Shown here piece by piece: positions 7,709 to 55,331 of a stretch of 64,000 nucleotides of DNA. The stretch lies in the NCBI GenBank assembly GCA_000002445.1, contig CM000207.1, forward strand, positions 928,001 through 992,000, written 5' to 3'. The DNA is from Trypanosoma brucei (lineage: Eukaryota). A model generated the notes under the pieces. The model had not been told where the DNA came from. It made no database searches and was given only the letters and a program-made list of their open reading frames with translations. Made by a program: the position numbers and the translations under genes. Every line of letters begins with the position of its first letter. Position 1 is the stretch's first letter.

Positions 7709-8574
7709 AAAAGGAAAATAAAAAACAAACTAACAGACAAAGAGGTATTTCCCCCTCGCAATCCCTCAAAGCGGGTGGTAAAGCAGGGAAAATAAGCAAG
7801 GCGTCTTTGTTCCGAATAAAAGGTTGGTACCCAAATAAGCAATTAACAGTCGCCATATAGTTCCTGTCTGTTTTTAATTCACTTTACGTCTCTTAGTTTT
7901 TGAGCTGAATGTTCTCACCGCCCCTTCTCCTTCCCTTGGACTTTCGCGTCTGCCATTCCCCCACAGGGCGTAACGTTGGAACCTCCTACAATCAGATACA
8001 ACCACAATGGAAGTGTTTTGAATGCGTTGGTCGGACCGAGTTATCGTAAATCCCATCTAAAAAGGAGTAAAAGAGGAGGAAGATAGCAAAAGAAAAGCCA
8101 TGGAAAAGACAGGAAAAAAAGGAATGAAGTGAGGAAACGGAAGGGGAAGTGCGTATTTGGGTTAAATACTATAATTATATTGTGTGACATTCTTTTTTTT
8201 TTTTTTAGTGCGTGTGTGGTTGTTTGTCGGGGGTTCAAGGGAGGGGGGAAGGGGGGAAAGAGAAAACACAAAGAAAAAACAAATAAACATTAAAGGAAGA
8301 TGCAAAGAAGTGCAGGAGATGGTAGTGGCGTGGATGTTCGGAAGCGAAAATGATAATAACAATGATAATGATAATGGTAATGCGCAAACGAAGTAAACGA
8401 GAAGGGATGGCTTCCGCATATCTCTTTTCGGTCTCATCTTCCCTGAAAACAAAGTTTCCTTGTTATTACTCGTCTGGTTCCATATTTCATCCTTTTCATT
8501 ACACTACCTGTATGTGGCCAAGTATCCGCTGTTAAATTTTGTTAGCGCCATGTCCACAGTTACATTCTGTGTCC

Positions 8575-8626
8575 CGTATTTCTCCTTGAACTTCTGCTAC
8601 TTTCCTCCTCTTGTGTTTTGGTACAG
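8575..8626 (+). promoter_or_regulatory. Polypyrimidine tract/AG splice-acceptor region upstream of TXNPx copy 1. An identical element lies at about 10822-10873 for copy 2.
   Basis: cttctgctactttcctcctcttgtgttttggtacAG, conserved in both repeat units. Confidence 0.4.
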
Positions 8627-8745
8627 AAAAAGCAACTCATAGCTAGCAAGTCAGTTTTTCACCAGCTAACTTCAAGTATTCGGCATATACCCATATCAAG
8701 GTAAAAAGGGAGAAAAAGAAAAAAGAAATAAAGATACAATTAAAC

Positions 8746-9345
8746 ATGTCCTGCGGTGATGCGAAACTCAACCACCCTGCGCCTCACTTCAATGAGGTGG
8801 CGCTGATGCCTAATGGCACTTTCAAGAAAGTTGATCTCGCCTCTTACAGGGGAAAGTGGGTGGTACTATTCTTTTATCCTCTCGACTTCACGTTTGTGTG
8901 CCCTACTGAAATCTGCCAATTCTCTGACCGCGTGAAGGAGTTCAACGACGTCGATTGTGAGGTTATTGCATGCTCAATGGACAGCGAATTCTCACATCTT
9001 GCATGGACAAATGTTGAACGCAAGAAGGGTGGATTGGGGACGATGAACATTCCCATCCTCGCTGATAAAACGAAATCAATCATGAAGGCTTATGGTGTAC
9101 TTAAGGAGGAAGACGGTGTTGCATACCGCGGTCTTTTCATCATTGACCCCCAACAGAACCTTCGTCAAATTACCATCAACGATCTTCCAGTTGGTCGTAA
9201 TGTTGACGAAACACTTCGACTTGTGAAGGCCTTCCAGTTTGTGGAAAAACACGGTGAGGTGTGCCCCGCTAACTGGAAACCTGGAAGCAAGACAATGAAG
9301 GCTGATCCCAACGGATCCCAAGATTACTTCAGCAGCATGAACTAA
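8746..9345 (+). CDS. TXNPx: Cytosolic tryparedoxin peroxidase (typical 2-Cys peroxiredoxin), copy 1
   Basis: 199 aa. Peroxidatic Cys motif FTFVCPTEI and resolving Cys VCPANW. Strong peroxiredoxin similarity throughout. Confidence 0.9.
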
Positions 9346-10992
9346 AATGGACTTGTTTCTAAGTTTGCAGTGTATTTCGTTCCTTTCACGAAGCGAGTCA
9401 CGCTGTTTTGGGAGTTCCTGTAGGAGCAATTACGGAAGCACATAAAATTTTCTATAGCCATGAAGAGGAGGATTACCTCCTGTAACGATGGGGTGATGCT
9501 TTCCCTTTTCGTGGTTTAATGCAAGACAGGGAGAGAATTACTATATATATATATATTTTCGTATTGAATATTAAGGTTACGATTTTTGTCACTATCTTTT
9601 TTTTTTATGGCACTGCAGTGTCTTATTGTTTGACTTCGTTCGAGTGCCGCAGCGTGGGAAAGGCAATGTGAAACACGAAAGGAAGGATAAACTTATAGGG
9701 TATTAGGAGTGAAAAATAGGGAAAAAGAGAATAGGCGGGGAGCCTGCTCAGTTTTAGCGAGAAGGCGTTGATATATGTCCGTCGGCAACTCTCATTTTCT
9801 TTCTTCTTTTTTTTTCCTTCTTTGCGTGTTTGCCAGTAGCTAACTCAACAAGATGCTTGTGCTTGTGATTTCGCACTTCACTATGAAGTCTGAGAAGGGG
9901 TTTAGCGATGGGTTCCTCCCAATACTGGGTCATCTCATTTTACACCATGCCTTGCCGATTTTTTTTTGTTCCTTTCCTCTCCACCCACCATTTACCCCTG
10001 GATCCTTACTTTTACCTTCCCCTTCCCTACATGCAAAAGCACAAACCTGTAATTGGTGCAGCTGAAGTAACGGAATAGGGTTTAAATACCCCCAATAGAT
10101 AAGTGCAAAACATACTTGTTACTCACCTATGTTAGTCCACTTGGATAAATGGTGGAAAAGCAAGGCCCATCGTCGCATAAAAGGTGCTCGCGGGGCCCGT
10201 TTTGCGAGTCTTAAGTTTCATGTTCTATTCCTTGGCAGTGTTATTTGTTTTGTTGAGTGGGTGATGCGATCGACTGACTGCTACGAGGATCCCTCTTACC
10301 ATATTGCTCCACCACCAGTCGCGCCTCCTCCACCGTTGGCTGCGTCGATTGGATATGCACTGAGTCGGGAAATGCCACATCTGCGTGTCATGGAACTAGA
10401 GAAAGGGATACCGTCACATTTACCGAAGACGCGGGGTGTTGACTACGTGTTGCTGCGAAGCGAAGGGAGGTTTGTTTAACACCTCAGGTGCACAACATAT
10501 ATATATATATATATGTTTGTGCTAGTGTTACCGTGTTCATCAAGTTTATGTGCATGCAATTTGGTTAGTGGTTTACTTAGGAAGGGGACAACATTTTGTA
10601 CGCAACGTAAGTCGCTTCACTCCTTTGTGAGGGCCAAACCCCCACTCAGGATCTCGCAATGGCGTAAGTGAATAAAAACTGGCAATAACCGCTCTTGTTT
10701 AATTTTACTCTGATTCGCATCTGGACTTCCTCCCCTCTGCACCGTTTCTCTTATGACCGAGAGGTATGTGGTCAAGCACACAATTTTGTTAGCGCCATGT
10801 CCACAGTTACATTCTGTGTCCCGTATTTCTCCTTGAACTTCTGCTACTTTCCTCCTCTTGTGTTTTGGTACAGAAAAAGCAACTCATAGCTAGCAAGTCA
10901 GTTTTTCACCAGCTAACTTCAAGTATTCGGCATATACCCATATCAAGGTAAAAAGGGAGAAAAAGAAAAAAGAAATAAAGATACAATTAAAC

Positions 10993-11592
10993 ATGTCCTG
11001 CGGTGATGCGAAACTCAACCACCCTGCGCCTCACTTCAATGAGGTGGCGCTGATGCCTAATGGCACTTTCAAGAAAGTTGATCTCGCCTCTTACAGGGGA
11101 AAGTGGGTGGTACTATTCTTTTATCCTCTCGACTTCACGTTTGTGTGCCCTACTGAAATCTGCCAATTCTCTGACCGCGTGAAGGAGTTCAACGACGTCG
11201 ATTGTGAGGTTATTGCATGCTCAATGGACAGCGAATTCTCACATCTTGCATGGACAAATGTTGAACGCAAGAAGGGTGGATTGGGGACGATGAACATTCC
11301 CATCCTCGCTGATAAAACGAAATCAATCATGAAGGCTTATGGTGTACTTAAGGAGGAAGACGGTGTTGCATACCGCGGTCTTTTCATCATTGACCCCCAA
11401 CAGAACCTTCGTCAAATTACCATCAACGATCTTCCAGTTGGTCGTAATGTTGACGAAACACTTCGACTTGTGAAGGCCTTCCAGTTTGTGGAAAAACACG
11501 GTGAGGTGTGCCCCGCTAACTGGAAACCTGGAAGCAAGACAATGAAGGCTGATCCCAACGGATCCCAAGATTACTTCAGCAGCATGAACTAA
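10993..11592 (+). CDS. TXNPx: Cytosolic tryparedoxin peroxidase, copy 2 (protein identical to copy 1)
   Basis: Identical 199-aa translation. Same 5' flank. Confidence 0.9.
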
Positions 11593-12659
11593 AATGTGTC
11601 TCGTTTTAATTTTTGTTTTGACTTCTACCTGTGATTTATTATTAATTGTTTTGTTGGGTCGTTCTTCTGGTGTATACAAGGTTTTGTCGTCTCTCCTGTG
11701 TGCCTTACCGGCTTTACTGTTCGTGACGCGTTAAAGCAGCCGCGGAGTGAACAAGTAGCGGTGTTTGGGAAATGGGTTTGGCGGCACTGGATTTACTTTT
11801 CCCTTCCCCCTCTGAGTTTTTTAGCGATCTTTACTTGTTTCCTTTTTGATTGCCCATCACTGCCACTGATATGATACTCACGTTATTCTATTGTGAGATG
11901 TATCAGGTGTGCTGGAAACGCTTTCAGTGGTTCTGATGTTGTAGGGTAAACGATTTCGGCGGCTTTATATCTAAGTTCCACTATGTATGAGGATACTTTG
12001 CATTACTTATATATACATATCTATACTTTTCGTTTTATCTCTTTTTTTTTCTAATTTACCACAATATGTTCGATTTCCCACATGTGTAGACACGCCATTA
12101 GGGAGGCGGAAAGCGAAAGCGTGCGTAATATTTATGTGGGGAAGCGTGGTAAGTTTGATTTGGATAGCCAGTCGGGAACAAATGACGAGGTCTCGGGAAG
12201 GGAAAGGGGAAACGGATGGAGAAGTACAAACTTTTAACGTGTGGTGACTGCATTTTTTTTTCCTTTGAGGGAAGACAGGGAGTTAACTGACACACCGAGA
12301 ATGGTGACGGAAACTATTCCAGTCACACGAACACCAGGGAGGGTATATGCTCGTCGCACTTTTCTTGTGCCCCCGCTGCATATATGCGTGTGTGCATGTA
12401 TAGTAGGTAATCTCTTTCTACTTCATCGCTTCTTGCATTTACATTGTCGTTTTTGTATTATTATTATTATTTTTTTTTTTTTTTGGTATACGTGATTGTA
12501 TACATTTGTACGCACGCGCCGGATGGTGATAATTTTTGTAGAAGTAAGGAGATAACTGGAGTAGGAAGCCCAGACGTGAAGTGTTGCGCCCGATCAGGCC
12601 TTCACGCACTGGATTTATTTTTCTTTTGGCGTTTACTTCTCGACGGTGCCTCTGGGTGG

Positions 12660-30057: not shown

Positions 30058-30794
30058 TTAAGTAACACCGAACACACAGCACAACGATACATTAACTCTA
30101 CCTCCAAGCAAAGAAAAAGTAATGCTCTTGTTGTTTTTTTTGTGTGTGTGAACTAGCGGGTAGTTTGCCTTTATTTTGCCTATTGTTGTTTCCCATTACA
30201 CTCTTGTTTCGAATAGTTTACTTTTCTTTTTCTTTTTAATAATTTTCTTTTATATTTTTCCCTTTCTGCCTGAAGAAGGTAGAGGAGGATGGAGCACGTT
30301 ACACAATAACAAACAGAGAAGCACATATATTTGTATGTGCTTTTCATTAATCCCTTTGTCAATGTTACCTCCACTTTAACCGGAGTGAAGATTTAACATG
30401 ATGCATATAAATGTTTATCAATACATGTGCTTCTCTCCTTGTTTTCTTTTTTTCATAGTTTCGCTACTAGCATTTGATATCATAGCATGTTATTACACTC
30501 CGTTATGTCTTTCTAACAACAGGAGTACAGCGACGGTTTAGTGCTTCGTTTATCTCCATCCTGTTCTCAGCAACATTTCAATGTGATATGTATCGTTATT
30601 CAACAGGTGGCTGATGTAAGTGCTTATATATATACATATATATGTGTATGTATATTTGTACATATATATTCTCCGTAACCTGTCCCCTAGTTTTTCTATC
30701 GCTAATGCCATTAACCTCTCGCATGAGTGGTGGTGCTGATATTGATGATGACAAGGGAATGTCAGGAAAGAGAAAAGGAGGAAGTGGAGGAGGG

Positions 30795-30798
<4 letters not shown>

Positions 30799-30825
<27 letters not shown>

Positions 30826-30827
30826 TG
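30799..30827. repeat. (AAT)n trinucleotide microsatellite (about 9 units). The paralogous copy in repeat unit 2 (about 33537-33572) has about 11 units.
   Basis: Direct reading. Length polymorphism between the two tandem units. Confidence 0.85.
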
Positions 30828-31373
30828 GATGATGCGACTCTTGGTCTCACCACTTTATGTTGAGTCCTAGGAACTGCTGTTGGTTTGTCACTATAATGGG
30901 AAGGTGTGTCTAGTGTGTGAGGATATGCTTGACTGTTTAATTATGCAACAACGCTTAAATTCATTCAAGTCGCATCGTTTCTTTACCACATCTAACAATT
31001 ATGAGTGTTTTTACTCTCTGTATGTTTGTTGCGTGATATGTGTGTGCTCATTATAGAAAGTGCTGCACTTGCGCTCCCATTTCAATCGTAATCCATTTCA
31101 CTCTTTTTCTTTTAATTCTTTCTTACCATTTCTCATTTTGAAACAAACAAAAGGAAGGAAAGCTTTTGTGTTTGACGAGTAATTCCCAACAGTAACAAGA
31201 CAAAATTTGGTTGATTAGGTTTCCAACGTCATAATATACGGCTGAACTTGTCGAAGGTTATATTCCTCAGGAAAAAATTATTGAAAGGATCCCAAACAAT
31301 TTAATAAAAGGATAAACCCACAGAGAAGTTGTTATTACTTTTACACGTATACCCAACTGGAACTCATTGAAAT

Positions 31374-32405
31374 ATGGTGAGGACGACACGCTTTTCACGC
31401 AACAGTTCCAAACCACTGTTTCAGCAATTACAGCTTATTACATCGTATGGACTCTTTCAGGAGTATCCACCCATTTGGTCACTTCCCCTTCCACCTCAAC
31501 AACCTCGTGATACGGGAAAACCCACACTGGTGCTTGATATTGATGAAACACTGATTCATACTGTGGGGATGCGGAATGAGGGGTCGGATTCTGTCTCCTT
31601 CAGTTTCTTCCTGCGTCCACATGCGAAGGAATTTCTCGCGGAGGTACGTGAACTGTACGAAGTTGTGTTCTGGACGGCTGGTACCGCATCCTACTGCTCA
31701 GCTGTTATGGATGCACTGGAGGTGCAGGTGTTACAACTCCCACGATCATTTTACAATATTGATGAACTCCGCGTAGAGGCACGTGGTGGAATCTCCACCA
31801 AGAATGTTAACTTCTATGCCCTTTCCCGAACTCAAACGTTACAAGGGCATAATTACATGAAATACCTTCCAATGCTTGGCAGACCATTGAATCGTGTCAT
31901 AGTGATCGACAGTGATGTACGCAGCTTTCCTCTTCATCCACGTAACGGTGTTAAGATCGAACCCTTCCTACCGAATGAACGTGTTTTATCCGAATATGCC
32001 CGCGTAGTAACCGATGAGGTGAAATATGGTCAAGTTGGTCAGCGGCAGTATGAAGGCGAAATGGCAAAAGTCATTGAGCGTGGTGAGGAGGAGGTAGCGC
32101 GATTGCAAGCGGATCATGCCCTTATGGATCTGATTCCAATGCTACGCTCTGCGGCTTCTTCAACTGATTTGACTCACGAATTAGACCATTGGCGTACGGA
32201 TGAGTACACAAAGTGTGACGACTTTCGTGAAACGATGAACTCTCTCTCAGTGACAAGGCAGAAGATTCTTGGTAATGTTCTTAAGGAGCGACGCAACGTA
32301 CCGATTCCGCCTCTCAAGCAGCACGTGATGAATCATGGATTTATGGAGGAGGCAAATGCCGCTATGAAGTTGGAGCAGATGCGACACACTCCTTCAAGAC
32401 TTTAG
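31374..32405 (+). CDS. NIF/FCP1-like (CTD small phosphatase-like, HAD family) protein phosphatase, copy 1
   Basis: DxDxT catalytic motif LVLDIDETLIHT. FCP/SCP-type core (FFLRPHAKEFLAEVRELYEVVFWTAG). 343 aa. Confidence 0.75.
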   Translation: MVRTTRFSRNSSKPLFQQLQLITSYGLFQEYPPIWSLPLPPQQPRDTGKPTLVLDIDETLIHTVGMRNEGSDSVSFSFFLRPHAKEFLAEVRELYEVVFWTAGTASYCSAVMDALEVQVLQLPRSFYNIDELRVEARGGISTKNVNFYALSRTQTLQGHNYMKYLPMLGRPLNRVIVIDSDVRSFPLHPRNGVKIEPFLPNERVLSEYARVVTDEVKYGQVGQRQYEGEMAKVIERGEEEVARLQADHALMDLIPMLRSAASSTDLTHELDHWRTDEYTKCDDFRETMNSLSVTRQKILGNVLKERRNVPIPPLKQHVMNHGFMEEANAAMKLEQMRHTPSRL

Positions 32406-34114
32406 GAGTATACATCTTAACGGTTAATATACATCTACCGTTGAACTGATGACGGAGCGTATTCGTTTATTAATTAATTAATTTATGAGTCACATATTTG
32501 AGCGATGGCTATTGATCGTGTACGTTACGATACTCTTTCTCCTTTTATTGTTAAAAGTTGTGTGTTTAATACCAATTTTGAGGAGCATCACATGTTATTG
32601 TTTTTTTTTATTTCATTATTTAGTACATTATTTATTATTGTTTTCTCTTCGTATCGTTTTGAGGTCTCTTCCTTTTTTTTTCTTATACTGAATGAAACCG
32701 CTTGTTTCAAAAAAATATTTGTTATACCCTTCTTCTACCTTCATTATCCATACACTCATATATATATATATATACATGCATACATATTTTAATAAGTGTT
32801 GATTTCTGTACGCACTGGGTGAAGCAAGTACAGTGCGTGAAGGCAAAGCAAAGGAAAGGTAATGCTCTTGTTGTTTTTTTTGTGTGTGTGAACTAGCGGG
32901 TAGTTTGCCTTTATTTTGCCTATTGTTGTTTCCCATTACACTCTTGTTTCGAATAGTTTACTTTTCTTTTTCTTTTTAATAATTTTCTTTTATATTTTTC
33001 CCTTTCTGCCTGAAGAAGGTAGAGGAGGATGGAGCACGTTACACAATAACAAACAGAGAAGCACATATATTTGTATGTGCTTTTCATTAATCCCTTTGTC
33101 AATGTTACCTCCACTTTAACCGGAGTGAAGATTTAACATGATGCATATAAATGTTTATCAATACATGTGCTTCTCTCCTTGTTTTCTTTTTTTCATAGTT
33201 TCGCTACTAGCATTTGATATCATAGCATGTTATTACACTCCGTTATGTCTTTCTAACAACAGGAGTACAGCGACGGTTTAGTGCTTCGTTTATCTCCATC
33301 CTGTTCTCAGCAACATTTCAATGTGATATGTATCGTTATTCAACAGGTGGCTGATGTAAGTGCTTATATATATACATATATATGTGTATGTATATTTGCT
33401 GTGTGCAATATACTCCGTAACCTGTCCCCTAGTTTTTCTATCGCTAATGCCATTAACCTCTCGCATGAGTGGTGGTGCTGATATTGATGATGACAAGGGA
33501 ATGTCAGGAAAGAGAAAAGGAGGAAGTGGAGGAGGGATAATAATAATAATAATAATAATAATAATATGGATGATGCGACTCTTGGTCTCACCACTTTATG
33601 TTGAGTCCTAGGAACTGCTGTTGGTTTGTCACTATAATGGGAAGGTGTGTCTAGTGTGTGAGGATATGCTTGACTGTTTAATTATGCAACAACGCTTAAA
33701 TTCATTCAAGTCGCATCGTTTCTTTACCACATCTAACAATTATGAGTGTTTTTACTCTCTGTATGTTTGTTGCGTGATATGTGTGTGCTCATTATAGAAA
33801 GTGCTGCACTTGCGCTCCCATTTCAATCGTAATCCATTTCACTCTTTTTCTTTTAATTCTTTCTTACCATTTCTCATTTTGAAACAAACAAAAGGAAGGA
33901 AAGCTTTTGTGTTTGACGAGTAATTCCCAACAGTAACAAGACAAAATTTGGTTGATTAGGTTTCCAACGTCATAATATACGGCTGAACTTGTCGAAGGTT
34001 ATATTCCTCAGGAAAAAATTATTGAAAGGATCCCAAACAATTTAATAAAAGGATAAACCCACAGAGAAGTTGTTATTACTTTTACACGTATACCCAACTG
34101 GAACTCATTGAAAT

Positions 34115-35146
34115 ATGGTGAGGACGACACGCTTTTCACGCAACAGTTCCAAACCACTGTTTCAGCAATTACAGCTTATTACATCGTATGGACTCTTTCA
34201 GGAGTATCCACCCATTTGGTCACTTCCCCTTCCACCTCAACAACCTCGTGATACGGGAAAACCCACACTGGTGCTTGATATTGATGAAACACTGATTCAT
34301 ACTGTGGGGATGCGGAATGAGGGGTCGGATTCTGTCTCCTTCAGTTTCTTCCTGCGTCCACATGCGAAGGAATTTCTCGCGGAGGTACGTGAACTGTACG
34401 AAGTTGTGTTCTGGACGGCTGGTACCGCATCCTACTGCTCAGCTGTTATGGATGCACTGGAGGTGCAGGTGTTACAACTCCCACGATCATTTTACAATAT
34501 TGATGAACTCCGCGTAGAGGCACGTGGTGGAATCTCCACCAAGAATGTTAACTTCTATGCCCTTTCCCGAACTCAAACGTTACAAGGGCATAATTACATG
34601 AAATACCTTCCAATGCTTGGCAGACCATTGAATCGTGTCATAATGGTAGATGACAATGTGCGCAGCTTTCCTCTTCATCCACGTAACGGTGTTAAGATCG
34701 AACCCTTCCTACCGAATGAACGTGTTTTATCCGAATATGCCCGCATAGTAACCGATGAGGTGAAATATGGTCAAGTTGGTCAGCGGCAGTATGAAGGCGA
34801 AATGGCAAAAGTCATTGAGTGTGGTGAGGAGGAGGTAGCGCGATTGCAAGCGGATCATGCCCTTATGGATCTGATTCCAATGCTACGCTCTGCGGCTTCT
34901 TCAACTGATTTGACTCACGAATTAGACCATTGGCGTACGGATGAGTACACAAAGTGTGACGACTTTCGTGAAACGATGAACTCTCTCTCAGTGACAAGGC
35001 AGAAGATTCTTGGTAATGTTCTTAAGGAGCGACGCAACGTACCGATTCCGCCTCTCAAGCAGCACGTGATGAATCATGGATTTATGGAGGAGGCAAATGC
35101 CGCTATGAAGTTGGAGCAGATGCGACACACTCCTTCAAGACTTTAG
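34115..35146 (+). CDS. NIF/FCP1-like phosphatase, copy 2. It differs from copy 1 at 7 residues, 5 of them clustered in RVIVIDSDV to RVIMVDDNV.
   Basis: Same motifs as copy 1. Tandem unit 2. Confidence 0.75.
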   Translation: MVRTTRFSRNSSKPLFQQLQLITSYGLFQEYPPIWSLPLPPQQPRDTGKPTLVLDIDETLIHTVGMRNEGSDSVSFSFFLRPHAKEFLAEVRELYEVVFWTAGTASYCSAVMDALEVQVLQLPRSFYNIDELRVEARGGISTKNVNFYALSRTQTLQGHNYMKYLPMLGRPLNRVIMVDDNVRSFPLHPRNGVKIEPFLPNERVLSEYARIVTDEVKYGQVGQRQYEGEMAKVIECGEEEVARLQADHALMDLIPMLRSAASSTDLTHELDHWRTDEYTKCDDFRETMNSLSVTRQKILGNVLKERRNVPIPPLKQHVMNHGFMEEANAAMKLEQMRHTPSRL

Positions 35147-35590
35147 GAGTATACATCTTAACGGTTAATATACATCTACCGTTGAACTGATGACGGAGCG
35201 TATTCGTTTATTAATTAATTAATTTATGAGTCACATATTTGAGCGATGGCTATTGATCGTGTACGTTACGATACTCTTTCTCCTTTTATTGTTAAAAGTT
35301 GTGTGTTTAATACCAATTTTGAGGAGCATCACATGTTATTGTTTTTTTTTTGTTTCATTATTTAGTACATTATTTATTATTGTTTTCTCTTAGTATCGTT
35401 TTGAGGTCTCTTCCTTTTTTTTTCTTATACTGAATGAAACCGCTTGTTTCAAAAAAATATTTGTTATACCCTTCTTCTACCTTCATTATCCATACACTCA
35501 TATATATATATACATGCATACATATTTTAATAAGTGTTGATTTCTGTACGCACTGGGTGAAGCAAGTACAGTGACTGTAGTGCTCTGGAG

Positions 35591-47662: not shown

Positions 47663-48115
47663 AGCCCTACCATCAAGTACGAGTTTGCGGTACACAAATA
47701 TGAGGCCGTGTTGCTACACTTTTTGGCAAATGCTCACAAGAAAACATAAGTAAAATGTGTCTTTCTGTAAGCGTTGTTGGCTGCAGCACCCACTACATGG
47801 TATCCTCGGCATCCGGGAGAGTGGAGCAGGTTACGGGCACGGCTAATCCTGTTTCTACCAAACTATGACACTCCCCTTCACTCTTTGTTTCTTGTATTAA
47901 TTTTCCCGTGAGTGCACGTATATTTATATCCACTCGTCTTAATTATCGGCAAATTGGTATTCCTCCCATTTCTACAGACGAATAGCAACCACCACTAGCG
48001 AACAAAAAAAAAAGGCAACAGTTTTACAACCAGAAAAAAACCATACTACCGACAGCAATTTTTGTGTTGAGTAAGCACTCACAACATCTACCAGAGCACA
48101 CGAAACAAAAAAGAT

Positions 48116-49330
48116 ATGGGCTTCGGATCATCAAAACCCAAGAACAAGCCGTCCAAAGCTGATTCAAAGAATTCTCCATCAGATCCAACGGGGGCAGGAA
48201 ATAATGATTTGGAAAAGGCCTTTGCGAAACTGCAGGCTGCAAAGGACTGCCACTCGCTGTTGAAGAAACATCTGACAAGTGATGTCTTCAAGAAGCTAAA
48301 GGACAAGAAGACGAAGTTGGGTGCTACCTTACTTGATGTCATTCAATCTGGTGTACAGAACCTCGATTCCGGTGTTGGTTTATATGCACCAGACGCAGAA
48401 GCCTACACTGTGTTTGCCGACCTCTTCGATCCCGTCATTGAGGATTACCACAACGGCTTTAAGGTAACGGACAAACAACCACCAAAGGACTTCGGTGACT
48501 TAAATACGCTGGTTGACGTTGATCCGGAAGGTAAATATGTTATTTCCACCCGTGTGCGCTGTGGCCGCAGTCTCGCCGGTTACCCATTCAACCCATGCCT
48601 AACGAAGGAGCAGTACGAGGAAATGGAGTCACGTGTGCGGGAACAACTGAGCACAATGACAGATGATCTGCAAGGTACTTATTATCCGCTTTCTGGCATG
48701 ACGAAAGAAACACAACAGCAGCTAATTGATGACCACTTCCTCTTCAAGGAGGGCGATCGTTTCCTGCAAGCTGCCCGCGCATGCGAGTATTGGCCAACTG
48801 GTCGTGGTATCTACCATAACAATGACAAGACATTCCTCGTGTGGGTGAATGAAGAGGACCACCTGCGCATCATTTCCATGCAGAAGGGCGGGAACTTGAA
48901 GGAGGTCTTCGGCCGTCTTGTGAAGGCAGTGAACACCATTGAAGAGAAGGTGGAGTTTTCTCGTGATGACCGACTTGGTTTCCTGACGTTCTGCCCCTCG
49001 AACCTCGGCACGACGATCCGCGCAAGTGTGCACATCAAATTACCGAAACTTGGTGCTGATCGCGCTAAACTTGAGGAGGTTGCTGCAAAATATAACCTGC
49101 AGGTACGTGGAACAGCTGGTGAGCACTCTGACAGCCCTGACGGAATTTATGATATCAGCAACAAGCGCCGCCTCGGCCTATCGGAGTATGAAGCCGTAAA
49201 GGAAATGCAAGACGGTATCCTTGAGCTCATCAAACTGGAGCAATCCGATGATGCAGAGGGGAACGGAGGTGCTGACGCTGCTGGGCCAGATGATGGCGTA
49301 GACGGTGTAGCCACGAATGAAAATGAATAA
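48116..49330 (+). CDS. AK1: Arginine kinase, paralogue with N- and C-terminal extensions (404 aa). The N-terminus MGFGSSK fits an N-myristoylation-type start. This is the flagellar isoform in T. brucei.
   Basis: Phosphagen (ATP:guanidino) kinase signature CPSNLGT. Nucleotide-binding arginines. Differs from AK2 and AK3 by about 30 extra N-terminal and about 22 extra C-terminal residues. Confidence 0.9.
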
Positions 49331-50505
49331 TCTGGTGAGGGTGATGCATTGTTCTATTCAGGCAAGTAGGACATTACTTTTACTTCGGTATTGATTTTCC
49401 TTCTTTTGTTTTTTCGGTGTTTTTGATTGGACAAGGTAAATTATTAGATAGGGTAGCATGTGATGATTCCTACTCCTTATATTTTCTAAAAAAGAAAGAA
49501 GTTTCTTTCCCCTTTGATTTTTATTTTTGCCCTCCCCTTTCTTTTTCCCATTTTTTTCTTATGTTTATATTTAATATAAAAACTGCATCAATGTATTATG
49601 TATATACCTTTATATCAATGTATTTATTAACTTTTTAATGATGCAAGAGATCATGACATAATGGGAAAATGGTGTGGGGGAGAACGGGTCGGGATGGAAG
49701 GGGGAGGTACTTGTGTATAGAGAGAGATTTTGTAGGGTTGTTCACTGATAAAGCAACGTTTTCAGACGAGCGCCATCCCAATAGTACTCTTTTTTGGATA
49801 TTCTCCTTACTCTTTCCTTTTAATCTTTTTTTATTTTTATTTTTTTCCTCTGGCCTGTTATTGTAGCTGGTGCTCCGTCCTTCTGTCGTCTACCATCCTT
49901 ATTTTTTGTCCCCTAATTCTTCCTTGGTCCTGCAAATTTAACGGATTTCCCCACCACCTAGTTGAAGAGTACCCAAAGCACGTCTCGCAATGATCCAGGG
50001 AATAAAAGATGACAGGTGAAAGAGAAGCCGTGAGAATCTCTATCTGAAGTCCAGAGGGATAAACATGTGTGCAGATGCGCGTTATTCTCAAGAGAGTATG
50101 GAACTACTCATCCACTCGTCATACATTCTTGTGCTCCGGCGCAAACCAAAAAAAAAAATTATTGCTGCCACTCTTTGATTTGTGGCGTGGGCAAAGTCAT
50201 TGAAGCCACACAAACCGCTGGATGTTAAAACAGTATTGACATTGGAAACAGAAACGCATAACTACAGGACGGACAACAAAGAAGTTAAAAAAATGAAAAA
50301 GTAAAGAAAGGACCGGTTCCCGCTTTTGATTATTCCTAACGCTGAGGATCACAACGCACCATCTTTAACAGCACGTCCCCTAACTTTAACTTCATTTTCT
50401 TCTTTTCTCTTTTATGTGCGTCCCTTTAATCAAAGCTGAACAGCTGTTCTTGTTGCACTATCACAAAAACAGCGAGTATCTACCAAACAAGAAAAAAAAT
50501 TAAAG

Positions 50506-51618
50506 ATGGCTACCCGCGACGTTGCTGCCGAGTTGGAAAAGGCCTTTGCGAAACTGCAGGCTGCAAAGGACTGCCACTCGCTGTTGAAGAAACATCTGAC
50601 AAGTGATGTCTTCAAGAAGCTAAAGGACAAGAAGACGAAGTTGGGTGCTACCTTACTTGATGTCATTCAATCTGGTGTACAGAACCTCGATTCCGGTGTT
50701 GGTTTATATGCACCAGACGCAGAAGCCTACACTGTGTTTGCCGACCTCTTCGATCCCGTCATTGAGGATTACCACAACGGCTTTAAGGTAACGGACAAAC
50801 AACCACCAAAGGACTTCGGTGACTTAAATACGCTGGTTGACGTTGATCCGGAAGGTAAATATGTTATTTCCACCCGTGTGCGCTGTGGCCGCAGTCTCGC
50901 CGGTTACCCATTCAACCCATGCCTAACGAAGGAGCAGTACGAGGAAATGGAGTCACGTGTGCGGGAACAACTGAGCACAATGACAGATGATCTGCAAGGT
51001 ACTTATTATCCGCTTTCTGGCATGACGAAAGAAACACAACAGCAGCTAATTGATGACCACTTCCTCTTCAAGGAGGGCGATCGTTTCCTGCAAGCTGCCC
51101 GCGCATGCGAGTATTGGCCAACTGGTCGTGGTATCTACCATAACAATGACAAGACATTCCTCGTGTGGGTGAATGAAGAGGACCACCTGCGCATCATTTC
51201 CATGCAGAAGGGCGGGAACTTGAAGGAGGTCTTCAGCCGTCTTGTGAAGGCAGTGAACATCATTGAAGAGAAGGTGGAGTTTTCTCGTGATGATCGACTT
51301 GGTTTCCTGACGTTCTGCCCCTCGAACCTCGGCACGACGATCCGCGCAAGTGTGCACATCAAATTACCGAAACTTGGTGCTGATCGCGCTAAACTTGAGG
51401 AGGTTGCTGCAAAATATAACCTGCAGGTACGTGGAACAGCTGGTGAGCACTCTGACAGCCCTGACGGAATTTATGATATCAGCAACAAGCGCCGCCTCGG
51501 CCTATCGGAGTATGAAGCCGTAAAGGAAATGCAAGACGGTATCCTTGAGCTCATCAAACTGGAGAATCGGGCTGTCGTAACCGATGGCGCCAAACCATTT
51601 GTTGGTTCGAACTTGTAG
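50506..51618 (+). CDS. AK2: Arginine kinase paralogue (370 aa) with a C-terminal extension ending -SNL. This is a PTS1-like tripeptide and marks the glycosomal isoform.
   Basis: Core identical or near-identical to AK1 and AK3. The unique C-terminus is ...[17 protein letters not shown]. Confidence 0.9.
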
Positions 51619-52314
51619 GGTTCTTTCCTTTCTTTCATACATTTCCCCTCTTAATTTTCTTCTTTGTTGACCTTTTTGCTTTATTTGCTGCTGATATCAT
51701 TGTTATGGTCTTTTTTAAAATTTTGGAAACGTAATTAGGTGATGATTGCCTTTGCTTCCGGTGGCTCCACTACTTGCTGAGTGACTTGATTGTTGTTACT
51801 TGTATTTTTTAAAAAAATGTGTTGGAAGATGCGTATGCGTGTATGTGCATGTGTTCTTCACTGTAGCACCATGCTGGTCTACTCCGCATAATTCTACGTT
51901 GGGGGAAGAAGTTGAGGCACGTGAAAGAATTTGTGAAGTTATTGGTGTGTACAAGTAAAAGGATTCAGAACAGGGGCCTGTATGGGGGGGGGGGGGTGAA
52001 CGCGTGTCCACGCCACTGTTGCCGAAGTGTCTGCCCTGCTCTTCTACCAAATTTCCTGAATCGTATTTGTGTCGAACTGCTGTACGCAACTGTTCCGATT
52101 ACGCTTTTCGAATCCTCTCTTGTTAGTGTGTCTGATGTAGAACTATTCCATTGTTTTGTTGCTAACATATTATTATTATTATTATTATTTTTGCGATTTG
52201 TCATATATACGAAATTTTTTTCTTTTCATGCTTCTCCTCTGGTACGGGTAAGGGCACTAGGCAAGTGCAAGACCATTGCAAGTGGCATTTCAGGTTTGCG
52301 ACTCGCAGTGGGCT

Positions 52315-53841
52315 ATGTTTTGTTGCACCTTCACTCAAGCCTGCCGTGCCCAACCTGGTGGCGTACCCCGACTAGATGTGAGTACTGTCAAAAGAATGTT
52401 CCCTCCAGCGCAGGTAGCGCAATGGCCGCCGGGATATCTTCCGGCGTGTGGCGTCGCACACTTCCTGAGCCCCGATGGCGTCCCACTTGCTGATGTGATT
52501 GATTGCCACCGCGACATGAGGGCAGACCGCCGTTGCCAGCTTCAGCGGGATTTTGCTGCAGATTATACGATGTGGTGCCGGGCAACATTAATGGACTTTG
52601 TACGTCGCCTTAACGAGAGGGACCGACGTCGCATGAAGCGTTTTTGTATGCGCGACCGAACGATGCATGATGCTGAAGTCCGCGAGTTGCTCGGTCTTGC
52701 CCCATACGTAGCCCCACGAGCACAACCGTCGCAGGAAACTGTCGGTACTAGCGCGGCACCCAAATGGGGGAGTTGTTACGAATTCACCCCTTTTGCTGTG
52801 ACACAAGGTCACGCCATGCTTCCCGTGTCGCAGTGCAACGGGTCGGACGCACGTATGTACTTATCAACATTCCCACAGATAAGAAACATCATGCATACAG
52901 AGTTCGACAGCATGGGGCCCGCACGTGCCATAGCACTTCTCTCCGGTGATGATTTCTTTCCGACAGCTGAGTGTCTTCAGGAACTGGTGTTGTACCTCCG
53001 GAGCCGGGTGGGCGAAATTATCGCTGCGGAAAAGGCATTTCGCGGTTCCTCTCTGTTCACTGAGCGCGGTAGGGATGCCAATGACGGAGACCAGCATGAG
53101 GCCGATGCCGGTCAACCGTTCTCTCTTGATACACCTGTTGTTTCTTTTTTTGGTAACGGGCGTCTGGCGTGGTTATTAAACAACAGCGGCCTCCTCCCTT
53201 TCCCTGTGGTGCCTGTGCAACCGCCCGAGTACGCCGCGAGAAGACAGCGCCGCAACAAACATTTGCTCTCCCGTGATGGGTTTGTTTCAGAATTATTTGG
53301 GCATGGAGTACTTCCTGAAAGCTTCACTACCGTGTTTCCTTGCGAGACAATCACCGTCCCTGATGCCCTTCGCAAGTACCGCCCGTGTGTTGTGCTTGTG
53401 GAGCCGCATGTCGATAGGGACTGGTTGTGCGATCTCCGCGGGTTTTATACAACGAGGGAGGTGGTGTTGCTCGGGTCCGTAGACTCGCCAGCGATGTGCT
53501 CGTTTGGTTTTCCTTTTTTGTCTTTCGGCGTTATGGCCGGGCCCACTACCTATTGGGCATACAATGAGGCATTACAACGAGTGTCAGCAGCCGAGAGAAT
53601 TCAAATGCCTGTGGATCCACCACACGTGTCACAGGGCTATGCACGCCGTCCAATCGACAATATATCGTCCTACCTGATTTCTCCAAACGACTGCTATGCG
53701 TTTAGCTACCAGCATCGATGTCTTTCCTTCATTCGCAAGGAATACCCTATTTCCAGAGGGCGGTGCACAGAAGCAATATGCAACACGTCACCAGAGCTTT
53801 GTCCCTCGAATATGGTTGCCGGTGAGAAGCACCAAATATGA
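52315..53841 (+). CDS. Hypothetical protein (~508 aa from the first ATG; the track ORF is 521 aa from a non-ATG codon) embedded between AK2 and AK3. No recognisable domain.
   Basis: Long ORF on the coding strand, flanked by polypyrimidine tracts. Cys- and Arg-rich. The start codon is uncertain. Confidence 0.4.
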   Translation: MFCCTFTQACRAQPGGVPRLDVSTVKRMFPPAQVAQWPPGYLPACGVAHFLSPDGVPLADVIDCHRDMRADRRCQLQRDFAADYTMWCRATLMDFVRRLNERDRRRMKRFCMRDRTMHDAEVRELLGLAPYVAPRAQPSQETVGTSAAPKWGSCYEFTPFAVTQGHAMLPVSQCNGSDARMYLSTFPQIRNIMHTEFDSMGPARAIALLSGDDFFPTAECLQELVLYLRSRVGEIIAAEKAFRGSSLFTERGRDANDGDQHEADAGQPFSLDTPVVSFFGNGRLAWLLNNSGLLPFPVVPVQPPEYAARRQRRNKHLLSRDGFVSELFGHGVLPESFTTVFPCETITVPDALRKYRPCVVLVEPHVDRDWLCDLRGFYTTREVVLLGSVDSPAMCSFGFPFLSFGVMAGPTTYWAYNEALQRVSAAERIQMPVDPPHVSQGYARRPIDNISSYLISPNDCYAFSYQHRCLSFIRKEYPISRGRCTEAICNTSPELCPSNMVAGEKHQI

Positions 53842-54260
53842 GTTTCACGGGGCATCAAAACTATAAAACACCAAAAAGTATCGACTTTTCATTAGCCCCT
53901 CTCCCAGTAATCCGTGCATTTTTTTTTTTGATACACCTGTCAATTAATGCGTGTTTCCGGTACCACATCGGGTGACAGTCATCGAATAAAACTGGCGATG
54001 CAAGTGACGGGATATTCTTCATTCACCGGCCGTACCCAAAGCGACTAAAGAAAAGAAGTTATAGCGGCAATGTGGCAAAAAAAAACAACTAAAGTCTAGA
54101 AAGCACAAAAAAATTTAACCACTGCATGTTGAAAAGTGTGGATTAACTTAACGTTTGTTCAGCGCGTATGTTCCCTCCTTTTCCTACTGCAACGCCACCG
54201 TTTTTATTAGTTTCTACGAAAAGCTAACAAATATCTACCAAACAAGAAAAAAAATTAAAG

Positions 54261-55331
54261 ATGGCTACCCGCGACGTTGCTGCCGAGTTGGAAAAGGCCT
54301 TTGCGAAACTGCAGGCTGCAAAGGACTGCCACTCGCTGTTGAAGAAATATCTGACAAGTGATGTCTTCAAGAAGCTAAAGGACAAGAAGACGAAGTTGGG
54401 TGCTACCTTACTTGATGTCATTCAATCTGGTGTACAGAACCTCGATTCCGGTGTTGGTTTATATGCACCAGACGCAGAAGCCTACACTGTGTTTGCCGAC
54501 CTCTTCGATCCCGTCATTGAGGATTACCACAACGGCTTTAAGGTAACGGACAAACAACCACCAAAGGACTTCGGTGACTTAAATACGCTGGTTGACGTTG
54601 ATCCGGAAGGTAAATATGTTATTTCCACCCGTGTGCGCTGTGGCCGCAGTCTCGCCGGTTACCCATTCAACCCATGCCTAACGAAGGAGCAGTACGAGGA
54701 AATGGAGTCACGTGTGCGGGAACAACTGAGCACAATGACAGATGATCTGCAAGGTACTTATTATCCGCTTTCTGGCATGACGAAAGAAACACAACAGCAG
54801 CTAATTGATGACCACTTCCTCTTCAAGGAGGGCGATCGTTTCCTGCAAGCTGCCCGCGCATGCGAGTATTGGCCAACTGGTCGTGGTATCTACCATAACA
54901 ATGACAAGACATTCCTCGTGTGGGTGAATGAAGAGGACCACCTGCGTATCATTTCCATGCAGAAGGGCGGGAACTTGAAGGAGGTCTTCGGCCGTCTTGT
55001 GAAGGCAGTGAACACCATTGAAAAAAAGGTGGAGTTCTCTCGTGATGATCGACTTGGTTTCCTGACGTTCTGCCCCTCGAACCTCGGCACGACGATCCGC
55101 GCAAGTGTGCACATCAAATTACCGAAACTTGGTGCTGATCGCGCTAAACTTGAGGAGGTTGCTGCAAAATATAACCTGCAGGTACGTGGAACAGCTGGTG
55201 AGCACTCTGACAGCCCTGACGGAATTTATGATATCAGCAACAAGCGCCGCCTCGGCCTATCGGAGTATGAAGCCGTAAAGGAAATGCAAGACGGTATCCT
55301 TGAGCTCATCAAACTGGAGAAGTCGAAGTAG
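54261..55331 (+). CDS. AK3: Arginine kinase paralogue without extensions (356 aa), the cytosolic-type isoform
   Basis: Same core as AK1 and AK2. Ends ...IKLEKSK directly after the conserved domain. Shares a 5' flank with AK2 (atctaccaaacaagaaaaaaaattaaag ATG). Confidence 0.9.

Follow-up and report, generated by a model that had tools for sequence, protein, structure and literature searches.

Homogenized cores and distinct targeting ends in the tandem arginine kinase array of Trypanosoma brucei

A homogenized core in the chromosome 9 array

Analysis of a 64,000-nucleotide stretch of Trypanosoma brucei DNA (GCA_000002445.1, contig CM000207.1, positions 928,001 to 992,000 of the forward strand; hereafter the window) revealed at 48116-55331 a tandem array of three arginine kinase (AK) genes that differ at their ends and whose catalytic cores are homogenized by ongoing recombination between the copies, a point that goes beyond the published work found on this locus. 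The three + strand open reading frames (ORFs) encode 404 (AK1, 48116-49330), 370 (AK2, 50506-51618), and 356 amino acids (AK3, 54261-55331) and matched exactly the T. brucei brucei TREU927 proteins XP_826998.1, XP_826999.1, and XP_827001.1, respectively; the interval is therefore the chromosome 9 AK array of the reference strain. The original prediction had placed three AK paralogues in this interval and its ends were exact, from the ATG of copy 1 at 48116 to the final stop-codon base of copy 3 at 55331. All three ORFs were present, but the interval additionally encloses a 508-amino acid gene that does not code for a kinase (gene X).

An ungapped DNA alignment of the three copies (register 48206, 50530, and 54285) delimited a core of 1032 nt at 48209-49240 in AK1, 50533-51564 in AK2, and 54288-55319 in AK3, with only eight variable columns in the 1032 nt and with three differences between the AK1 core and that of AK2 and six between AK1 and AK3. 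Beyond these bounds, identity dropped abruptly to approximately 40-55%, the level of unrelated sequences (around 45% in the flanks). The pairwise alignment suggested earlier for mapping conversion tracts gave sharp boundaries and upheld the description of near-identical cores between unique termini. AK2 and AK3 also had in common the 56 nt upstream of the core (50477-50532 and 54232-54287), consisting of 29 nt of 5' untranslated region (UTR) and the codons for MATRDVAAE, with zero mismatches; their mismatch-free alignment extended from register offset -53 to +62, i.e., from 50477/54232 onward. The AK1-AK2 spacer at 49331-50505, including the AK1 3' UTR, intergenic DNA, and the AK2 5' UTR, was unique sequence.

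Synonymous divergence (dS) among the three T. brucei cores was 0.004-0.018 and among three T. vivax cores 0-0.004, compared to between-species values ranging from 0.37 (T. rangeli versus T. conorhini) up to saturation, with a nonsynonymous divergence (dN) of approximately 0.09 in the saturated pairs. At the protein level, the cores of copies with an N-terminal Met-Gly extension (MG-type copies, such as AK1) and of copies without it were identical within species at 342 of 344 residues in T. brucei, 344 of 344 in T. congolense, and 343 of 344 in T. rangeli, compared to only approximately 85% core identity for the same kind of copy between species. The T. brucei copies are nevertheless not young, since their flanks could not be aligned.

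Homogenization was also evident between strains. Comparison of TREU927, T. b. gambiense DAL972, and T. b. equiperdum (11 copies, 25 variable core sites) identified five sites that were fixed by strain over all paralogues and none that was fixed by isoform. For example, the three TREU927 copies all had T, T, A, and A at positions 335, 356, 590, and 905, where each of the eight others had C, C, G, and G, and in the three assemblies paralogues within a strain differed at a mean of 5.3 sites versus 9.6 for same-type copies across strains. The copies within an assembly still differed at specific sites, in mosaic patterns. Core recombination is frequent on the time scale of the T. brucei subspecies, as follows from the strain-fixed sites together with a chimeric copy in T. 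b. equiperdum and an extra unit in T. b. gambiense.

The T. b. equiperdum assembly (GCA_003543875.1; extracted locus L006, 10001-11239) has an additional AK copy between AK1 and AK2 that combines an AK2-type 5' UTR and start, the common core, and an AK1-type acidic tail, and has a copy of the AK1-AK2 spacer on either side. Judged from its sequence, the chimera would be what a duplication by unequal crossover inside the core is expected to leave. It is annotated as a protein of 412 amino acids with the start wrongly placed in the 5' UTR. In T. b. gambiense DAL972 (L005, 6365-15506), four AK copies, of which two are of the SNL-type (ending like AK2), and two X genes were identified, with an extra [AK2 + X] unit; one X was cut to 434 amino acids by an internal deletion and the last AK copy had an AK2-like 5' flank. 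The number of AK copies was three in the window versus at least four in the gambiense and equiperdum assemblies, and as both copy number and chimeras vary by strain, knock-out, RNA interference, and expression studies that assume three genes may face a different array.

In all probability, the locus is the known three-address array, derived from an old duplication, with a core homogenized by conversion and unequal crossover. The duplication would be old, since the copies cannot be aligned with one another in their UTRs and terminal codons, and repeated gene conversion and unequal crossover would have kept the 1032-nt core alike. The homogenized tract would stop at the limit of homology, and conversion events that overwrote a targeting end would presumably be removed by selection. 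The same homogenization seems to be active in other trypanosomes, where it would lead the copies to cluster by species. The earlier claim that conversion keeps the core constant was borne out by the near-zero paralogue dS, the strain-fixed substitutions, and the recombinant chimera.

A related case is the tandem of phosphoglycerate kinase (PGK) genes in T. brucei, encoding PGK-B of the cytosol and PGK-C, which a C-terminal extension directs to the glycosome, in which gene conversion keeps the cores alike; it differs from the AK array in the enzyme and in having no flagellar isoform. Gene conversion and concerted evolution are also discussed, with more than 20 mentions each, for the tandem arrays of trypanosomatid amino-acid transporters (Jackson 2007, PMC1810246), which are another gene family, and the arginine kinase passages in that paper concern metabolism. 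For the arginine kinases of trypanosomes, neither gene conversion nor concerted evolution was found in the literature searched, with earlier publication remaining possible, and Voncken 2013 (PMC3679164) and Ooi 2015 (PMC4517888) do not discuss gene conversion at the AK locus.

Two further repeats in the window offer a comparison. A tandem duplication at 30106-35573 comprises a whole 2.74-kb unit with 98.9% identity including intergenic DNA, each unit having a gene for a 343-amino acid NIF/CTD-like phosphatase (31374-32405 and 34115-35146). The phosphatase pair was thus duplicated together with its intergenic DNA, whereas AK1 is similar to AK2 and AK3 over the coding core only. The other repeat, of 833 nt and 99.4% identity (8535-9366 and 10782-11613), barely exceeds its coding region, as with the AK copies, and contains two identical ORFs of 199 amino acids (8746-9345 and 10993-11592), which we take from their FTFVCPTE motif to be a putative 2-Cys peroxiredoxin/tryparedoxin peroxidase.

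Distinct ends and three cellular addresses

The AK1 N-terminus has 31 unique residues (48116-48208) in place of the nine of MATRDVAAE (net +22), and its C-terminus 29 unique acidic residues followed by the stop codon (49241-49330) versus KSK (net +26). The N-terminal extension had been predicted at 30 residues, which was roughly right, while the 22 residues given for the acidic tail were too few. The extension starts with MGFGSSK and includes Gly2 and Ser6, as in the N-myristoylation consensus, as well as five lysines, and AK1 therefore fits the pattern of an N-myristoylated flagellar cargo, with a Met-Gly start, Ser6, and a nearby polybasic stretch. The C-terminus of AK2 consists of 17 unique residues and the stop codon (51565-51618), and its GSNL ending directly before the stop fits the SKL-type tripeptide of a peroxisomal targeting signal of type 1 (PTS1). 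AK3 ends in KSK and carries neither targeting signal, consistent with its description as the bare copy. A net C-terminal extension of 26 residues was also reported for AK1 by Voncken 2013 (PMC3679164), with no function assigned.

The three genes correspond to the published TbAK1-3, with the same locus, ends, and locations (Voncken 2013, PMC3679164; Ooi 2015, PMC4517888). According to PMC3679164, myc-tagged proteins localized to the flagellum for the long isoform, the glycosome for the SNL isoform, and the cytosol for the short one; the N-terminal 22 residues of that isoform, the long one, sufficed to bring GFP to the flagellum; and a tag on the relevant end destroyed each targeting signal, such that masking of -SNL, which works as a PTS1, by a C-terminal tag abolished glycosomal import. 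In addition, mutation of Gly2 to alanine (G2A) abolished both the flagellar location and the binding of Unc119, a lipid-binding carrier, and myristoylation proteomics with the flagellar AK as a high-confidence hit was cited (preprint 10.1101/2020.05.07.083568). The N-myristoylation-type MGxxxS start of AK1, the PTS1-like SNL of AK2, and the known flagellar, glycosomal, and cytosolic arrangement of T. brucei, all recognized in the original prediction, agree with these data and with the exact TREU927 matches. The three-address locus and its targeting are already published and the earlier functional interpretation coincides with the experimental literature; the value added here is limited to the evidence for concerted evolution and a likely correction of the claim that the flagellar isoform originated twice.

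The nomenclature differs between the two papers, with the numbering of the isoforms reversed: the long isoform is TbAK1 in Voncken 2013 (PMC3679164) and AK3 in Ooi 2015 (PMC4517888), and the bare isoform is TbAK3 in the former and AK1 in the latter. The identifiers for the same isoforms also conflict, with Tb927.9.6170, 6230, and 6290 in Voncken 2013 (PMC3679164) versus 6210, 6250, and 6290.

The published locus illustrates how one enzyme can be delivered to three addresses by altering only the ends of tandem copies. AK1 would be N-myristoylated on Gly2, bound by Unc119, and carried to the flagellum aided by the lysine-rich stretch; AK2 is imported into the glycosome by its -SNL type 1 peroxisomal signal; and AK3, with neither signal, remains in the cytosol. 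As all three genes are predicted to encode the same catalytically complete arginine kinase (ATP + arginine <-> ADP + phosphoarginine), they could provide three separate phosphoarginine buffers. The myristoyl/Unc119 flagellar, SNL glycosomal, and signal-free cytosolic routes have been shown by published experiments (PMC3679164; 10.1101/2020.05.07.083568).

Similar flagellar cargoes are known. The AK extension was likened to the calflagins of T. brucei and FCaBP of T. cruzi on the basis of Gly2, small residues at positions 4-6, and five lysines (Ooi 2015, PMC4517888), a study in which a knockout of the flagellar AK gene was also made. Calflagins and FCaBP are acylated flagellar membrane proteins with EF-hands, whereas the AK cargo is a metabolic enzyme, and calflagins are in addition palmitoylated on a nearby cysteine (PMC4517888), which the AK1 extension lacks. 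Cargoes of the LIFT pathway (Unc119/Arl3/Arl13b) such as NPHP3 resemble the flagellar AK in myristoyl-dependent Unc119 binding and Unc119-dependent flagellar entry, but in trypanosomes the pathway runs on TbArl3A and has no PDE6-delta carrier (10.1101/2020.05.07.083568).

The MG-type copy in other trypanosomes

Starts of the MG[FS][GA]xS type followed by a lysine-rich stretch were identified in T. brucei, T. congolense, T. vivax, T. rangeli, T. conorhini, and one further sequencing-run assembly. The MG extension of T. congolense (MGFGASRPKKDVKKEKK) was identical to that of T. brucei in seven of the first ten residues, and the two species share MGFG[SA]S[KR]PK, including residues beyond those required by the myristoylation consensus. 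The gene order HEAT-repeat gene, gene for a protein of approximately 1100 amino acids, and MG-type AK was conserved in T. brucei, T. vivax, T. rangeli, and T. conorhini. In the first three of these species the array is closed by the same ABC transporter, while the T. conorhini contig ends after the AK. In T. congolense, the short contig examined held X and a bare AK copy, and in T. theileri the 5' half of the first AK copy falls in a run of N.

Three copies were found in the newer T. vivax assembly (GCA_021307395.1), the MG copy first and each of the other two preceded by an X gene; its MG copy (L001, 10001-11271) is split by a frameshift into 252 and 160 amino acids, representing an assembly error or a pseudogene. 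An AK of T. vivax Y486 (375 amino acids) ends in NFFRSLSKI, where the PTS1-like -SKI would give a glycosomal isoform in this species too; the newer assembly reads this tail as -HALL instead.

The T. cruzi AK lies at the same chromosomal locus as the T. brucei array, between the gene for the approximately 1100-amino acid protein and the ABC transporter. Unlike in T. brucei, all T. cruzi AK copies examined were bare, with neither MG extension nor PTS1, and no MG motif was present upstream of the first copy, where the in-frame translation contained stops. The upstream translations of the first and second T. cruzi copies were nearly the same and the copies share their 5' UTR. In GCA_015033625.1 (L007 and L008), a repeat unit of approximately 8.1 kb includes AK, the ABC transporter, further genes, and X with 98.4% identity; one ABC transporter was broken into four ORFs and one AK was frameshifted, probably by long-read indel errors.

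The leading position of the MG copy behind one and the same upstream gene in four species suggests one old origin of the flagellar AK, hidden by concerted evolution. It is fairly likely that it represents a positionally conserved first array member that predates the split of the salivarian trypanosomes from T. rangeli/T. conorhini and was lost or overwritten in T. cruzi.

Alternative explanations

An origin in independent recent duplications, with the flagellar signal invented separately in each species and the cores similar because they are young, follows the proposal of Ooi 2015 (PMC4517888) that the flagellar isoform arose independently in T. brucei and T. congolense and is tsetse-linked. 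The proposal drew on the clustering of the copies by species and on a count of one gene each in T. vivax and T. cruzi. Clustering by species in the published trees (PMC4517888) was repeated in the distances computed here and the T. cruzi copies are exclusively bare. However, the T. brucei copies were unalignable in their flanks and terminal codons despite a core dS of approximately 0.01, and a young duplication would have taken its flanks along as in the NIF phosphatase pair. At least five named species have an MG copy, which in the four represented by DNA of the locus leads the array behind a common upstream gene, and MGFG[SA]S[KR]PK is shared by T. brucei and T. congolense. Furthermore, the strain-fixed substitutions common to all paralogues show that homogenization is ongoing, and the single T. 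vivax AK counted in Ooi 2015 (PMC4517888) is replaced by three in the newer assembly. Separate origins are accordingly improbable, and the homogenized cores probably misled the earlier two-origin claim by producing gene trees with false species-specific duplications. Since the cores are homogenized, trees built from them cannot tell when the isoforms arose, placing the published link between the flagellar isoform and the tsetse midgut on weak ground. If the single old origin is true, the locus shows that conversion can stay within a catalytic core over very long periods without the loss of short targeting ends.

The remaining alternatives concern the core identity and the reality of the ends. 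The core near-identity and the shared strain-specific bases might arise from assembly collapse or cross-polishing, for which the obvious indel errors inside AK copies of long-read assemblies and the suspicious 3462-nt 100% identity in T. vivax would speak; this is very unlikely, as the pattern was repeated in independent assemblies and technologies (TREU927, DAL972, equiperdum, T. congolense, and T. rangeli cDNA-type entries), site-specific mosaic differences persist among the copies of one assembly, and the genes were cloned and expressed separately and found to be virtually identical except at their ends (Voncken 2013, PMC3679164). Purifying selection on the protein alone, without recombination, might be invoked for a highly conserved enzyme with a dN of approximately 0.09 between synonymously saturated species. 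It is insufficient because synonymous sites are also near-identical between paralogues and is contradicted already by a paralogue dS of 0.004-0.018 in the face of saturation between species, and with the chimeric equiperdum copy as a direct sign of recombination, it is scarcely credible. Least probable of all is that the terminal extensions are annotation artefacts in which UTR was read as coding and the three genes encode one protein. The equiperdum annotation that wrongly runs an AK ORF into the 5' UTR shows that such errors occur, but nothing in the sequence of the window lends support to one. A C/T-rich run upstream of AK1 ends in tttctacag and is followed by no ATG before 48116, the sequence coding for the extension is purine-rich with no polypyrimidine tract, and the first in-frame Met beyond 48116 is found only far into the enzyme, such that a start there would cost the protein its N-terminal domain. 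The AK1 extension is also kept in gambiense and equiperdum with only one or two substitutions. Flagellar location is limited to the isoform with the extension, which alone targets GFP, and a C-terminal tag over -SNL blocks glycosomal import (PMC3679164). Taken with the published effect of G2A and the proteomic evidence on myristoylation (10.1101/2020.05.07.083568), the AK1 upstream sequence and the position of the next Met effectively exclude a UTR mis-call, and the artefact explanation is already refuted by published tagging and mutagenesis.

Several points nonetheless weigh against an old array with a homogenized core and one ancient flagellar copy. Near-identical repeats are prone to assembly collapse and consensus polishing, which could exaggerate the similarity within an assembly; the [X + AK] units of T. 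vivax are 100% identical over 3462 nt and long-read assemblies contain frameshifts in AK copies. The N-terminal extensions are short and of low complexity, and their likeness could partly be convergence on the need for myristoylation and a polybasic stretch. The likely AK1 splice acceptor upstream of 48116, corresponding to a pyrimidine-rich tract followed by AG on the + strand at 47870-47977, is a prediction from sequence. Finally, the conflicting gene identifiers hint that the current reference annotation may hold more than three AK copies.

The enzyme family

All three ORFs matched PF00217 (E approximately 1e-81) and PF02807 (E approximately 1e-34) over their full length, well above chance expectation. 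The closest solved structure of similar length was T. cruzi arginine kinase (2J1Q, E=1.7e-203), and the 23 solved chains at E<=1e-100 were all named arginine kinase except for one taurocyamine kinase. The T. cruzi enzyme (2J1Q; TcCLB.507241.30) has the same family and fold as the window AKs and is approximately 84% identical to their core (tblastn). Alignment with Limulus AK and T. cruzi AK for catalytic and substrate residues (Limulus numbering) showed conservation of D62, S63, G64, Y68, R126, E225, R229, C271, R280, R309, and E314. The active-site motif C-P-x-[ST]-N-[ILV]-G-T, which contains the reactive cysteine, was present as FCPSNLGTT and the arginine-type specificity loop (D62-S63-G64-V65, Y68) as LDSGVGLY. 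Activity of recombinant TbAK1 is the subject of a results section in Voncken 2013 (PMC3679164).

The closest relatives outside the trypanosomes were arthropod arginine kinases (single-domain proteins, approximately 71-79% identity), confirming the arthropod-type phosphagen kinase named earlier. The suggestion of horizontal transfer is in line with the acquisition from an early panarthropod lineage argued by Ooi 2015 (PMC4517888), which also reported no AK genes in Leishmania.

Gene X and further ORFs in the array

An antisense ORF of 103 amino acids was present in every AK core (48722-49033, 51046-51357, and 54801-55112, - strand). These ORFs were rejected as genes since the same reverse-frame ORF is tripled mechanically by repetition of the core, and no sign of a gene was found. 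Also rejected was a 193-amino acid ORF with a TTG start at 51912-52493, an unsupported out-of-frame overlap with the start of gene X.

Gene X, located between AK2 and AK3 on the + strand (52315-53841), encodes a conserved hypothetical protein of 508 amino acids (a 521-amino acid ORF, read from the first ATG) that is not an arginine kinase. A Pfam scan identified no domain in gene X and none in the 1148-amino acid gene upstream of the array. Orthologues of X were found across the kinetoplastids, including Leishmania and Leptomonas, and X is part of a repeating [X + AK] unit in T. vivax, T. b. gambiense, and T. cruzi. Gene X looks as if it had occupied the locus first, with the AK copies spreading around it.

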